Shown here: in pieces, positions 28 through 35,231 of the stretch
How positions within the stretch are numbered: position 1 is the stretch's first letter
How the letters are laid out: each line of letters starts with the position of its first letter
IMG/VR virus record: IMGVR_UViG_3300045988_142641
Length of the DNA stretch: 35,258 bases
From: a virus
Taxonomy: Duplodnaviria > Heunggongvirae > Uroviricota > Caudoviricetes
Direction: 5' to 3' (one strand)
The notes under the pieces: generated by a model
The model's database searches: none
Seen by the model: only the letters and a program-made list of their open reading frames with translations
Told to the model about the DNA's origin: nothing
Translations under genes and position numbers: made by a program

Positions 28-55
28 AATCTCCCTTACACGGGCTTATTTTTTA
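28..55. repeat. attL: prophage attachment core (attL), 28-bp direct repeat with 35204-35231
   Basis: aatctcccttacacgggcttatttttta is identical at 28-55 and 35204-35231. Its reverse complement matches the P2 attP core as I recall it (AAAAAATAAGCCCGTGTAAGGGAGATT). Confidence 0.85.
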
Positions 56-114
56 CGCGTAATACAATGAAATAAAAGGATTTATTTCTGGTCACGTCCA
101 CACATTGACCACAT

Positions 115-142
115 CGACAAAAAAGCCCCTCGACTGAGGGGC
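115..142 (-). terminator. intrinsic terminator downstream of ogr
   Basis: 7-bp GC stem gcccctc/gaggggc (125-142) with 4-nt loop, followed on the minus strand by a T6 run (plus aaaaaa 115-124). Confidence 0.6.
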
Positions 143-155
143 TTCCTGTTTGTAA

Positions 156-374
156 TTACATCCACATAATTTGCTGCCCTGACGGCAACGGGTGCGGCCT
201 TACGGCGTGGACTTCTCCCGGCTTCACGATGTATCGCTGTACCGACTCATAAGTGATGAACGTGGCACTGCAATTCACGTTCTGACACTGGTGATAACGC
301 TCTTTTGTCGTGTCAGTGATATAGCGGCTTGTACGCGCATGTGCGGCATGCTGGCATAAAGGACAATGAAACAT
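156..374 (-). CDS. ogr: Ogr late-gene transcriptional activator (zinc-finger, 72 aa)
   Basis: Translation from internal Met: MFHCPLCQHAAHARTSRYITDTTKERYHQCQNVNCSATF..., with CxxC...CxxxxC zinc-binding pattern and P2 Ogr length. The ORF track's longer 93-aa form (to 437) is probably an upstream in-frame extension. Confidence 0.85.
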   Translation of the reverse strand: MFHCPLCQHAAHARTSRYITDTTKERYHQCQNVNCSATFITYESVQRYIVKPGEVHAVRPHPLPSGQQIMWM

Positions 375-455
375 CGCGAGCACCTCTTCCGGTTTTGTTG
401 ATGGTGCCATTTTAGTTAATTTATCCTTATAAAACAAACAGATAAAATAAAAACA

Positions 456-1619
456 TCACTCATTATCTTCTGTTTCGTACTCCACATCAGAAAGCCTAAC
501 CTCAAGCTCCAAGGACGTCGTGAAGCCGCTATTATTCAGAAAATGTGTCACCTTAGTGATTGTCCAGTCCTGCTCGTCTATGACGCGCTTAAAGCCTGAC
601 ACTTTAACCGGTGTTTCCGTGTAAATATCTGCCCGACCGGTAGCCAGGCTGATGGAGAACTCCGCAACGCCCCGTTGCAGTTTATCCCACTTCGCCTGAG
701 CGGCGCGCATGGCCTGCGCTTTCGTGGCATATACCGTGGTCAGGGCAAAAACATTGTCAGCCTCACCGGCCATATATTCACCTTCGCGCGCTTCCGGTAC
801 TTTTGGCTCTTTCTTCTGCCTGACCGGTTTCGCTTTCGGGTGCTCCAGTGCGCGCAGGTGTTTTTCTTTCTTTTTGCGTTTCAGTTTTACCTTCTGCTTT
901 TGCGGCTTCGGGTCTTTGGTGTGTAACCACTTTGCCGTTACGCCGGTATAGGCTCCACGGTCAGCAATCGCAAAATGATGACGGTCGCCGTCGCTGCGGG
1001 TGATGGTAATCTGCGGGATTTTTTTACCGCTGGCCGTCACCCCCTGCCCCGCTTTGAGAAACAGCAGTTTTCCCATTTTTACCGACACCTCACTGCCGTT
1101 GCGTTCAGCAAGACGGGTCAGGAATTTCGCATCAGACTCCTGCGACTGGTCGATGTGCGGGATTTTAATTCCTGCCAGTGACGGCGCGACACTGGCTTCC
1201 AGCCTGTTACGGGAGGCTATCGCCTCAACAATCGCACCGAGCGTGGTGTCATGCCATGAGCCTTCCCGGCGGGAATTGAGCGTCCCGCGAAAATCTGCAC
1301 TCCGGGCACGGATGGTGACCACATCCGGCGCGCCCCGGTGTTCAACCTCATCAACGGTAAATTTCCCTTTGCATACCAGGGCAAAACCTTTCCAGCCGAT
1401 ATACACCGTCAGGACAGCGCCACGAACCGGCAGCCCGACCTGCCCGTCGGCATCGTTCAGTTCAATATCAAGCTGGTCAGCCTCAAAGCCCCGGTTATCC
1501 GTCAGGGTCATGCTCATCAGACGGTCACTGATATTGCCGGTAATATCTCTGCTGTCGAGCATCAGCATGTAATCCGGCGTCAGCGTACTGCCTGCATCAA
1601 ATGTCAGCGTATCCAGCAT
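456..1619 (-). CDS. D: tail protein D (387 aa)
   Basis: 387-aa ORF at the P2 gpD position next to ogr; length and synteny match P2 D. Confidence 0.85.
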   Translation of the reverse strand: MLDTLTFDAGSTLTPDYMLMLDSRDITGNISDRLMSMTLTDNRGFEADQLDIELNDADGQVGLPVRGAVLTVYIGWKGFALVCKGKFTVDEVEHRGAPDVVTIRARSADFRGTLNSRREGSWHDTTLGAIVEAIASRNRLEASVAPSLAGIKIPHIDQSQESDAKFLTRLAERNGSEVSVKMGKLLFLKAGQGVTASGKKIPQITITRSDGDRHHFAIADRGAYTGVTAKWLHTKDPKPQKQKVKLKRKKKEKHLRALEHPKAKPVRQKKEPKVPEAREGEYMAGEADNVFALTTVYATKAQAMRAAQAKWDKLQRGVAEFSISLATGRADIYTETPVKVSGFKRVIDEQDWTITKVTHFLNNSGFTTSLELEVRLSDVEYETEDNE

Positions 1620-33312: not shown

Positions 33313-33574
33313 CGAGACCTAACCACATCAACCAGCCGTCACGAATCTCTTTAGGACGGCTTTCATAAGCCAGTTTTAGTCCGTTATTCCATGCCGGAAG
33401 GTATACCCAATATTCACCAGCACGCCCCGATACTGACTGAGGGTCAGTAATCTCAATAACTGGTAATTTCCCTTTCTCAATCATGCCCCTTACAGCTCTT
33501 GGAGTTTTACCAATGAGTTTTGCAAACTCCTGATAAGGCACAGCATCAGTCACGCTTACAAGCTGTCTATTCAT
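33299..33574 (-). CDS. cox: Cox excisionase / early-promoter regulator (91 aa)
   Basis: MNRQLVSVTDAVPYQEFAKLIGKTPRAVRGMIEKGKLPVIEITDPQSVSGRAGEYWVYLPAWNNGLKLAYESRPKEIRDGWLMWLGLGEPR closely resembles P2 Cox as I recall it; first gene of the early operon, divergent from C. Confidence 0.9.
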   Translation of the reverse strand: MNRQLVSVTDAVPYQEFAKLIGKTPRAVRGMIEKGKLPVIEITDPQSVSGRAGEYWVYLPAWNNGLKLAYESRPKEIRDGWLMWLGLGEPR

Positions 33575-33695
33575 CTGCTACGATTCTCCCTTAGTGCTTC
33601 TAATGGCTCCTAATGGCTAATTATTGCCTAAAAGAATAACTCCAGAAGCACAACATTTCACACTATCAGCAAGAAATTACGCAATCGGAGTAATT
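33575..33695. promoter_or_regulatory. immunity switch region (divergent Pe/Pc) with direct-repeat candidate C operators at 33601-33618
   Basis: 121-bp divergent intergenic region; taatggct occurs twice with 10-bp period (33601-33608 and 33611-33618). P2-type C repressors bind direct rather than inverted repeats. Confidence 0.5.
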
Positions 33696-33995
33696 ATGTC
33701 AATAGACGTTTCGGAGAAGTTGAAGCTAATCCGTGAATCTGAAAGGTTAAACCGTAAAGAATTCAGTGAATTAACTGGTGTAGCCTACAGCTCACTTTCG
33801 AGCTATGAGAGCCGGTCAAAAAACGCTGGAGTTGAAGCCATAATGAAGGTCTTACAACATCCCAGATTTACTAAATATACTTTGTGGTTCATGACTGATC
33901 AGGTAGCTCCAGAAGCCGGGCAAATTGCGCCCGCTCTCGCACACTTTGGGCAAAACGAAACAACGTCGCCCCACTCCGGTCAAAAGACTGGTTAA
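33696..33995 (+). CDS. C: immunity repressor C (99 aa, HTH)
   Basis: From the internal ATG at 33696 with SD ggag 6 nt upstream; the C-terminal half ...FTKYTLWFMTDQVAPEAGQIAPALAHFGQNETTSPHSGQKTG resembles P2 C as I recall it. Confidence 0.85.
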   Translation: MSIDVSEKLKLIRESERLNRKEFSELTGVAYSSLSSYESRSKNAGVEAIMKVLQHPRFTKYTLWFMTDQVAPEAGQIAPALAHFGQNETTSPHSGQKTG

Positions 33996-34110
33996 CAATT
34001 TATCGTGAATATATTCATCACAAGTGCCTACTATTGGTGGCTAAATTTCAGCCACCACGAAAAAAGCGATTAGTAGTAGCAAAAAAAAGTACCACTCGGA
34101 GGGTTTTCTG

Positions 34111-35124
34111 ATGGCAATCAAAAAACTCGATGATGGTCGATATGAAGTGGACATCCGCCCTACTGGACGTAACGGAAAACGCATCCGTAGGAAGTTTGAT
34201 AAGAAAAGCGAAGCTGTCGCTTTCGAAAAATACACGTTGTACAACCACCACAATAAAGAATGGCTATCAAAACCAACAGACAAACGACGTCTGTCGGAAC
34301 TGACACAGATCTGGTGGGATTTAAAGGGTAAACACGAAGAGCATGGGAAATCTAATCTTGGAAAAATTGAAATCTTCACAAAAATAACGAATGACCCATG
34401 CGCATTTCAAATCACGAAATCCCTTATCAGCCAGTACTGCGCCACCCGAAGAAGTCAGGGTATTAAACCTTCGAGTATCAATCGTGATTTAACATGTATT
34501 AGCGGCATGTTTACAGCCCTGATTGAAGCGGAGTTATTCTTTGGTGAGCACCCTATCAGAGGGACAAAGAGGCTTAAGGAGGAAAAACCAGAAACAGGCT
34601 ATCTCACACAGGAAGAAATTGCCTTACTGCTTGCAGCACTTGACGGCGACAACAAAAAGATTGCGATTCTTTGCCTGAGTACAGGAGCACGTTGGGGAGA
34701 AGCAGCTCGTTTGAAAGCAGAAAATATCATCCATAACCGCGTCACGTTTGTTAAAACGAAAACAAACAAACCACGCACCGTCCCGATCTCAGAGGCTGTT
34801 GCCAAAATGATCGCGGATAACAAACGAGGTTTTTTATTCCCTGATGCTGATTACCCTCGCTTCAGACGAACAATGAAAGCAATAAAACCGGATTTGCCAA
34901 CGGGGCAAGCCACACATGCACTAAGGCACAGCTTTGCCACTCATTTCATGATTAATGGAGGAAGTATTATCACGCTACAACGGATACTAGGTCACACGCG
35001 GATTGAGCAAACTATGGTTTACGCTCATTTTGCGCCAGAGTACCTTCAGGACGCCATTTCTCTTAATCCGCTAAGAGGTGGTACTGAAGCCGAGAGTGTC
35101 CACACAGTGTCCACAGTAGAGTAA
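34111..35124 (+). CDS. int: tyrosine integrase (337 aa)
   Basis: 337 aa with C-terminal HALRHSFATHFM...LGHTRIEQTMVYAHF (HxxR, H, Y catalytic motifs); adjacent to the att core. Confidence 0.9.
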   Translation: MAIKKLDDGRYEVDIRPTGRNGKRIRRKFDKKSEAVAFEKYTLYNHHNKEWLSKPTDKRRLSELTQIWWDLKGKHEEHGKSNLGKIEIFTKITNDPCAFQITKSLISQYCATRRSQGIKPSSINRDLTCISGMFTALIEAELFFGEHPIRGTKRLKEEKPETGYLTQEEIALLLAALDGDNKKIAILCLSTGARWGEAARLKAENIIHNRVTFVKTKTNKPRTVPISEAVAKMIADNKRGFLFPDADYPRFRRTMKAIKPDLPTGQATHALRHSFATHFMINGGSIITLQRILGHTRIEQTMVYAHFAPEYLQDAISLNPLRGGTEAESVHTVSTVE

Positions 35125-35203
35125 CGTTTAAGGGCTTTCAGTGGTAATTTATGCCGCTCAAACCCGCATTGTACCGTTGAAAGCCCCTACTGGTGACACC
35201 CTA

Positions 35204-35231
35204 AATCTCCCTTACACGGGCTTATTTTTTA
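35204..35231. repeat. attR: prophage attachment core (attR), 28-bp direct repeat with 28-55
   Basis: Identical 28-mer. The core overlaps a host-side hairpin gggcttat-tttttatgc-ataagccc (35218-35242), consistent with integration into the 3' terminator region of a host gene. Confidence 0.85.

Follow-up and report, generated by a model that had tools for sequence, protein, structure and literature searches.

A P2-family prophage, very probably complete and live, at the cyaR site of Escherichia coli

The virus record IMGVR_UViG_3300045988_142641, a stretch of 35,258 nucleotides that is referred to here, at its full length, as the window, very probably represents a single complete Escherichia coli prophage of the P2 family (Peduovirus), which is predicted to be a live phage and for which no induction by the SOS response is expected. 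The element is bounded by an exact duplication of the P2 attP core, its backbone follows P2 without a break from ogr to int, its immunity repressor is of a P2-type class that consists of a DNA-binding domain only, and its cargo occupies both of the hotspots documented for P2. Comparisons were made with the P2 reference record (NC_001895), with a set of 50,697 phage records searched by megablast and with a chromosome set of 5426 complete E. coli genomes.

Junctions and host site

The 28-mer AATCTCCCTTACACGGGCTTATTTTTTA is found exactly twice in the window, at 28-55 and at 35204-35231, and the bases bordering the two copies differ. This repeat is the attP core of P2: the annotated P2 core at 24356-24383 lifts over with identity at 28 of 28 positions. 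Chance is excluded as a source of the duplication, in that none of 100 dinucleotide-preserving shuffles of the window gave a 28-bp repeat match, even when up to three mismatches were allowed. The exact att duplication claimed by the original prediction is thus confirmed, and so is its description of the element as a P2-like prophage, since P2 synteny is kept between the two copies, the P and P' arms lie inside them and flank the repeat in the expected orientation, and removal of the element recreates an empty host site. The names of the junctions need a correction. The copy on the ogr side (28-55), recognized by the exact repeat and its identity to P2, is the P-O-B' junction, which is attR by the P2 convention, whereas the copy on the int side (35204-35231), which had been called attR, is B-O-P' and hence attL. 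The element between the junctions is a P2-like genome of 35,176 bp (28 to 35203), and the host flank toward yegR follows the int-side core at 35232-35258.

In the megablast comparison, P2, pro147, Wphi, P2_AC1 and their relatives covered about 80% of the window at 96-98% identity, and the backbone is 94-98% identical in nucleotide sequence to P2, pro147 and Wphi. Phage records matched all parts of the window outside two blocks. Direct comparison with P2 resolved five colinear segments that continue across the joined cos ends, with no P2 homology detected by this comparison in 6973-11091 and 25651-29288.

The host locus, for which the prediction had pointed to whole-genome context as a check, was found between yegQ (trhP) and yegR, the classical and preferred P2 site (locI), at the 3' end of the small RNA (sRNA) gene cyaR. 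The window holds 27 bp of host DNA on each side, and joining these flanks via one copy of the core gives 82 bp that are 100% identical to the empty yegQ-yegR site of many E. coli genomes. This 82-bp site is contiguous in 4184 of the 5426 genomes and not contiguous in about 23% of them, which is consistent with occupation. The same interval of K-12 contains cyaR and, directly after it, the cryptic P2 remnant PR-X (ogrK, yegZ), whose annotated start falls inside the 3' end of cyaR; the window prophage and the K-12 remnant therefore share one site. For three strains, E. coli W, K-12 and B, the site of P2-type insertion has been listed as 'cyaR RNA' (Archer et al., PMC3032704). Positions 1-51 of the window (plus strand) are the 3' part of cyaR (also RyeE), the 5' end of the gene being cut by the window edge: they correspond to positions 35-85 of the 85 in the Rfam CyaR model RF00112, with a score of 66.8 bits (gathering threshold 47) and E = 7e-13. 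The empty locus (L004) contains, again by Rfam, the full 85-nt cyaR ending inside the att core, and the last ~24 nt of the gene come from the core itself.

Integration at this locus would have proceeded by recombination, catalysed by the P2-type Int, between the 28-bp attP core and its exact counterpart at the 3' end of cyaR. As phage and host do not differ in this core, cyaR would be rebuilt intact at the ogr-side junction, and since the att core contributes the last ~24 nt of the gene, the CyaR RNA should be unchanged in the lysogen. The int-side junction would in turn keep a promoterless copy of these last ~24 nt. The original prediction had proposed integration in a gene terminator on the strength of a host hairpin at 35218-35242, overlapping the int-side core. 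The terminator target proved correct, but the hairpin, the junction and the type of gene had been misidentified. The real hairpin is the intrinsic terminator of the sRNA gene, located on the ogr side at 19-46 (plus strand), with an 11-bp stem, a 6-nt loop and a T-run at 47-54; it was called by the terminator scan and folds at -15.9 kcal/mol (z = -4.94), a stability that none of 200 shuffles reached. The inverted repeat at 35218-35242 was rejected as a terminator: its 8-bp arms fold at -10.5 kcal/mol (z = -1.45), no better than shuffled sequence, it is not followed by a U-tract, and it received neither a terminator call nor an Rfam match.

One could still suppose that the 28-bp repeat is coincidental or an assembly artefact, and that the window is chimeric rather than one integrated element. 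We found no point that supports this, and give it practically no credence. No such repeat arose in the 100 shuffles, the repeat equals the P2 core with the P and P' arms correctly oriented around it, and the joined flanks reproduce the natural empty site exactly. The P2 synteny runs unbroken through cos. Furthermore, 16252-35258 of the window is contiguous, at 98.2% identity, with the chromosome of S22EC (NZ_CP076687) across the right junction. A single integrated P2-family prophage accounts for all of these observations.

Backbone genes, cis-acting sites and viability

The integrity of the backbone was tested by mapping each annotated P2 coding sequence (CDS) onto the window by tblastn, and then checking each gene for its start codon relative to P2, for stops within the frame and for where the frame ends. 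In all 37 P2 backbone genes recovered in this way, the reading frame opens with ATG where it does in P2 and is free of internal stops, and the genes are in P2 order from ogr to int. Exactly the P2 length is kept by 35 of the 37, the others being V (213 against 211 aa) and H (681 against 669 aa), and most of the proteins are 93-100% identical to those of P2. On the minus strand, ogr (156-374) encodes the late-gene activator, 72 aa long and 100% identical to P2 Ogr. It is followed on the same strand by the F operon with D, U, T, E and E+E', FII and FI (456-6758), the V operon with G, H, I, J, W and V (11179-16187), and the O operon with S, R, lysC, lysB, lysA, K, Y, X, L, M, N and O (16254-22454). 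The early operon, also on the minus strand, comprises cox, orf78, B, orf80-83 and A (29260-33574). The plus strand carries P, for the large terminase subunit, together with Q, for the portal (22628-25434), as well as C and int. The slippery site of E/E', GGTTTTTTG, is kept near 4720, and the 142-aa product of the -1 frameshift is intact.

The earlier claim that int, cox and C are intact holds, all three being full length without an internal stop. The tyrosine integrase (34111-35124, plus strand; 337 aa) is identical to P2 Int at 336 of 337 residues, the sole difference being M264T, which is non-catalytic, and A retains the YIAKY motif of its active site without change. The broader statement that every expected P2 gene is present is right for the 37 full-length genes from ogr to int and needs qualification for orf30, fun(Z), orf91, tin and old, none of which was found in the window by tblastn of the annotated P2 CDSs. 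In the P2 record, orf30, fun(Z), tin and old are marked as nonessential, a note that orf91 does not carry; bearing on the absence of the latter, pro147 has no DUF3850 gene. This test of integrity is able to detect decay, because frameshifts are annotated in S and N of the sister prophage in S22EC.

The H gene required particular care. A truncation of gpH was considered when tblastn and blastp gave only a weak C-terminal high-scoring segment pair, and was rejected when global alignment showed an intact gene; the two programs had missed an N-terminal match of 470 residues (1-470) that is ~97% identical to P2, so that global alignment was needed to see it. It is the receptor-binding C-terminus that has been exchanged: 11710-12330 (minus strand) shows ~50% identity to P2 with insertions and deletions, and 94% identity to pro147. 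The swapped C-terminus implies a receptor or host range unlike that of P2.

A separate observation concerns the 3' end of A (29260-29400, minus strand), where the last ~100 codons are far more diverged than the rest of the gene. Of the 43 substitutions in A, 32 fall after residue 650, and the last eight residues all differ from P2. This distribution would be consistent with a boundary of hotspot recombination inside the 3' end of A.

The cis-acting sites were judged by lift-over from the annotated P2 record. On the minus strand, the P arm of attP (53-117) combines the IHF footprint (53-86, identical at 29 of 34 positions) with an Int arm-type site (90-117, 28/28), and the P' arm (35090-35187) contains an Int arm site (27/27) and the Cox-binding region (74/74). 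The terminator of ogr and the F operon (122-144, minus strand), which was also called by the terminator scan, is identical to P2 at 23 of 24 positions and the ogr promoter at 29 of 30. Complete identity was found for the Ogr activator site common to pO and pP (22534-22564, minus strand; 31/31), for the 19-nt P2 cohesive-end sequence of cos, GGCGAGGCGGGGAAAGCAC (25604-25622, minus strand; 19/19), and for the ori nick site (29672-29702, minus strand; 31/31). In sum, the att core, cos, ori, the Int arm sites and the Cox boxes are those of P2. Lift-over failed for the P2 sites pV, pF, Pe/Pc and the O-operon and V-operon terminators. To judge from the alleles found in their place, these failures reflect replacement rather than loss, with an S-V spacer and pF of the Wphi type and a switch region of the P2 Hy dis type. 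The pF late-promoter region (6759-6973, minus strand) shares 94% identity with Wphi and 79% with P2, and a TGT-N12-CCA motif is retained where P2 has its activator site. The S-V spacer (16188-16253, minus strand), 66 bp long and without orf30, is 99% identical to Wphi and has the same arrangement; Wphi is a phage that was isolated as virions.

Every protein and nearly every cis site needed for the phage cycle is intact, which leads to the prediction of a live phage. Several points weigh against this reading. The genome is over-length, longer than that of any sampled close relative, and packaging efficiency could suffer. The activator sites of pV and pF are not identical to those of P2 and are judged only by their similarity to Wphi, and the differences in the IHF footprint include one consensus position. 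The host identity rests on 54 bp of flank plus the core. Finally, function is unreadable from sequence, and there are missense differences such as the 43 substitutions in A or those in V, which is 86% identical to its P2 counterpart.

As for size, the excised genome of 35,176 bp is 1.6 kb (4.7%) longer than that of P2. Close relatives sampled from the phage collection (gpN at least 95% identical) range from 29.2 to 33.8 kb, the record of a 34.8-kb relative including host flank, and genomes of 35.1 kb occur only in records of P2-like phages that are less closely related. That a genome exceeding P2 by 4.7% could be packaged nonetheless appears plausible. The IHF footprint differs from P2 at five of its 34 positions, which lie at 56-70 beside the att core (CATTGTATTACGCG against CAATTTATTGTACG in P2), and the same allele is present in identical form in the prophage vB_EcoM-720R8 (ON470606), inserted at the same site.

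These features could be taken to mean that the prophage, while intact in sequence, is cryptic, yielding no infectious particles because of its over-length genome, its altered IHF site or deleterious missense changes, and persisting as a carrier of cargo that benefits the host. Besides the excess over the 33.8-kb maximum of the sampled close relatives and the five IHF differences, such a fate would fit the finding that 98% of P2-like prophages contain one pseudogene or more, with about half of these pseudogenes in defence loci (PMC13586616), and the annotation of two essential genes as frameshifted in the sister prophage of S22EC. Yet no backbone gene of the window prophage is truncated, the catalytic motifs of Int and A are conserved, and no difference from P2 is seen in cos, ori, the Int arm sites or the Cox sites. 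Moreover, 35.1-kb records do exist among more distant P2-like phages, and a second prophage at this site has the same IHF allele. We therefore regard a cryptic prophage as distinctly unlikely and retain the prediction of a live phage. Since the element has no visible defect, both of its cargo islands are plausibly transferable by lysogenisation.

Immunity and the expected mode of induction

The immunity repressor C (33696-33995, plus strand) is a 99-aa protein in which Pfam recognizes HTH_3 only. It is 64.6% identical to P2 C over 99 aa and conserves residues L63, W64 and T67; Cox (Pfam Phage_Cox, E = 1.7e-42) is 83.5% identical to P2 Cox, and the operators differ from those of P2. In the P2 subgroup, a small C of ~100 aa binds direct repeats, and Cox serves both as excisionase and as repressor of Pc. 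The C proteins of P2 and of P2 Hy dis have been reported to be 63% identical (Henriksson-Peltola et al. 2007, PMC1904268). According to the same work, the Hy dis operator consists of two 8-bp half-sites that are spaced 26 bp centre to centre and flank the -35 region of the Pe promoter, with a natural mismatch in O2 (PMC1904268). The Pe promoter of the window (33674-33718, minus strand) is composed of a perfect TTGACA at 33702-33697, a 17-nt spacer and TAATTT at 33679-33674, and its -35 hexamer is flanked by two predicted C half-sites, TTCTCCGA (33718-33711) and TACTCCGA (33692-33685), which show one natural mismatch, are 26 bp apart and form the only 8-mer pair with this spacing in the switch region. 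In addition, the 16-nt Hy dis primer A3-44 (PMC1904268) matches exactly within C, at 33731-33746. With an identity to P2 C of ~63-65%, the geometry of the half-sites and the primer match in common, C appears to belong to the P2 Hy dis immunity class, Hy dis itself having been compared via this primer and its published description only. P2 Hy dis is a laboratory hybrid, whereas the window holds a natural prophage, and its immunity module is no rarity: the C-cox-int block is 99-100% identical to that of vB_EcoM-720R8, and the module is present in 347 of the 5426 E. coli genomes (6%).

The original prediction had called the prophage inducible-looking, a description for which we find no support, because C consists of an HTH domain only, no LexA box of the form CTGT-N8-ACAG is present anywhere in the window and no Tum- or DinI-like protein was found among its non-backbone open reading frames (ORFs), all of which are explained by cargo. 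P2 is described as 'temperate, non-inducible' in a work quoted to that effect (Bertani & Bertani 1970, cited in PMC5009727). SOS induction in the P2 family belongs to the branch of coliphage 186, where it depends on the LexA-controlled antirepressor Tum (PMC3121763). The window prophage and 186 have in common the architecture of the virion and replication modules, and the 186 capsid gene is 77.9% identical in DNA sequence to window N. They differ in their switch: the CI repressor of 186 is roughly double the size of P2 C, with no relation to it in sequence (PMC2995052), whereas the window has a P2-type C, and it contains neither the LexA box nor the Tum-like match that would be looked for in a phage of the 186 type.

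A prophage that is SOS-inducible and behaves like 186 is accordingly very improbable, and this reading was rejected on account of the missing LexA box and the HTH-only repressor. The one point in its favour is of a general nature, namely the intactness of int, cox and C; the sequence itself lends it no support. On the other side stand a 99-aa P2-family C of the Hy dis class rather than a 186-type CI, in which Pfam found no S24 peptidase or other cleavage domain, the absence of a CTGT-N8-ACAG box from the window and of a Tum- or DinI-like protein from the non-backbone ORFs, the standing of P2 as the classic non-inducible phage in the source cited above (PMC5009727), and the specificity of Tum-mediated induction for 186-type phages (PMC3121763).

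A P2-type phage of the Hy dis immunity class would, if P2 biology is a guide, hold lysogeny through C bound to the pair of 8-bp direct repeats on either side of the -35 hexamer in Pe. Exit from lysogeny would need Cox, Int and IHF acting on the conserved arm sites; A would then nick the conserved ori, Ogr would switch on the four late operons, and the P/M terminase would cut the conserved cos. In P2 itself, the prophage can be derepressed by the antirepressor of P4, which binds C around Thr67 (PMC2995052). The phenotype to be expected of the window prophage is a low, P2-like spontaneous release and derepression by a P4-type antirepressor, without SOS induction. Treatment with mitomycin C or ultraviolet light would thus be the wrong experiment, and spontaneous release, inactivation of C or the P4 antirepressor a fitting one.

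Cargo islands, relatives and significance

P2 carries its variable cargo in two documented hotspots, one at fun(Z) (PMC9519451) and the other between gpA and gpQ (PMC9122126). The window prophage lacks, relative to P2, fun(Z), orf91, tin and old along with orf30, and has other cargo in both hotspots. By the GC profile, the two islands have a GC content of 35-40%, against ~55% for the backbone.

Cargo island 2 (25751-29038, minus strand) occupies the gpA-gpQ (tin/old) hotspot and consists of three overlapping genes, all on the minus strand, followed by a terminator-like hairpin at 25683-25670. The first gene (27872-29038) encodes a PP2C phosphatase of 388 aa (PF13672, E = 4.7e-6), the second (26815-27879) a Ser/Thr kinase of 354 aa, K1, with an all-beta tail, and the third (25751-26818) a Ser/Thr kinase of 355 aa, K2, with a CSD-like tail that contains a GFI motif. 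The two kinases match Pkinase (PF00069) with E-values of 1.7e-42 and 5.9e-45, both have HRD and DFG motifs, and they also match the PD-T4-6 and MAD6 defence kinase models. The phosphatase-kinase-kinase operon is present in 14 of the 5426 E. coli genomes, always adjoining gpA, and its closest carrier is S22EC.

This operon resembles the KKP module PfpC-PfkB-PfkA (Guo et al. 2024, PMC11341870), in which the two kinases are jointly toxic and the phosphatase serves as the antitoxin. More than 90% of KKP modules are in temperate phages, P2 included, and an E. coli KKP module protects against T4, whose Gp59 is the trigger (PMC11341870). The window operon has the same order, a PP2C phosphatase and then two kinases, and lies between gpA and gpQ of a P2-type prophage, a context reported for KKP (PMC11341870). 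Of the KKP kinases, PfkB is defined by a C-terminal FHA domain and PfkA by a C-terminal cold-shock domain (CSD) with a GFI/A motif. K1 has no match to the Pfam FHA domain, and neither has any of its 76 relatives. A single-sequence AlphaFold model of K1 proved unusable (predicted local distance difference test, pLDDT, 34), whereas a confident model (pLDDT 95.6) shows an all-beta tail; a homology search with this tail alone gave no match, and phmmer against the Protein Data Bank (PDB) returned only noise. The K2 tail matches CSD at E = 0.0036 and 17.6 bits, below the Pfam cut-off of 27, with a KYGFI motif present. The catalogue of the KKP paper uses IMG gene ids, and the tested module is that of E. 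coli 15EC039. Because the evidence from the FHA and CSD tails is mixed, we term the operon KKP-like rather than a proven member. It is probably a defence system of the abortive-infection or toxin-antitoxin type.

Cargo island 1 (6973-11091), in the fun(Z) hotspot, was found in none of the 50,697 phage records and, as a whole, in none of the 5426 E. coli genomes. It is a mosaic of three segments, 6975-8260, 8282-9942 and 9876-11144. The first segment has no megablast match in the complete E. coli genomes or the phage records and encodes, at 7286-8155 (plus strand), a 289-aa protein with no assigned function and no match in Pfam, PADLOC, PHROGs or NCBIfam. This protein is a full-length member of a widespread gammaproteobacterial family, and its closest named homologues, 72-74% identical, are in Morganella, Serratia and Klebsiella. 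The third segment is 98.9% identical in DNA sequence to a lambdoid prophage region of IPCEC31 and contains, at 10112-11056 (plus strand), the gene of a 314-aa protein, likewise full length and with no assigned function. The N-terminus of the latter is weakly GIY-YIG-like (Pfam E = 0.017, below threshold), with the pattern GVYLI...YVGVS...RR..EH and a weak match to PADLOC PDC-S14, on which basis it may be a defence gene of the nuclease type. Permissive Pfam scans of the three island-1 proteins gave sub-threshold matches only.

The middle segment holds a tyrosine recombinase remnant of 111 aa (8275-8610, minus strand) and the gene of a 379-aa protein with no assigned function (8646-9785, minus strand), which belongs to phrog_12525 and is full length for its family. 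The remnant is a pseudogene that corresponds to the C-terminal half of a protein of ~200 aa: it matches phrog_216 integrase and covers only positions 92-166 of the 172 in Pfam Phage_integrase. Its counterparts lie at 6046-6648 of L003 and 6040-6333 of L002. An intact recombinase of 200 aa is found in IPCEC31, beside variable cargo of a lambdoid prophage, and the homologous stub of SF-468 is annotated by NCBI as a pseudogene, 'incomplete, missing N-terminus'. The segment with the stub and the 379-aa gene is 96.6% identical to a module of SF-468, and a homologue of the 379-aa protein occupies the same hotspot in the P2-like prophage of ES5. That the same stub travels with the 379-aa gene in SF-468 suggests an exchange of cassettes between the hotspots of unrelated prophages. 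The stub is also the single visible sign of decay in the element, and its location in cargo is typical of P2-like prophages. The original prediction that nothing suggests decay can thus be upheld for the backbone, which has no frameshift or truncation, and has to be given up for island 1.

Among complete genomes, S22EC contains the closest relative of the window prophage. Both S22EC and vB_EcoM-720R8 carry their prophages at the same yegQ-yegR site with identical or near-identical C-cox-int, and island 1 is absent from both. S22EC has the phosphatase-kinase-kinase operon in common with the window, but differs in having Shedu in the fun(Z) hotspot and in keeping orf30; 720R8 carries other cargo in both hotspots. 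In the S22EC prophage (L009), the genes annotated as frameshifted are those of gpS (10615-11066) and the major capsid protein N (14828-15902), which could represent either decay or sequencing errors.

Taken as a whole, the element is a correct but routine prophage call, a new mosaic within a thoroughly familiar group. E. coli commonly has P2-like prophages at the cyaR site, and both hotspots have already been well described. Some potential lies only in the KKP-like operon and in those genes of island 1 that are uncharacterised. The insertion is of a kind that preserves the host sRNA gene cyaR, and island 1 with its integrase stub offers a clean example of cassette swapping between hotspots of P2-type and lambdoid prophages. 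Since the island-1 genes are in a hotspot known for anti-phage systems, at least one of them could be a new single-gene defence. The joint proposal that at least one of these genes is such a defence, and that the KKP-like operon couples the control of lysogeny to phosphorylation, as KKP does in Pf phages, is conceivable though rather doubtful. If true, the KKP-like operon would give a 'non-inducible' phage a route to induction that does not pass through the SOS response.

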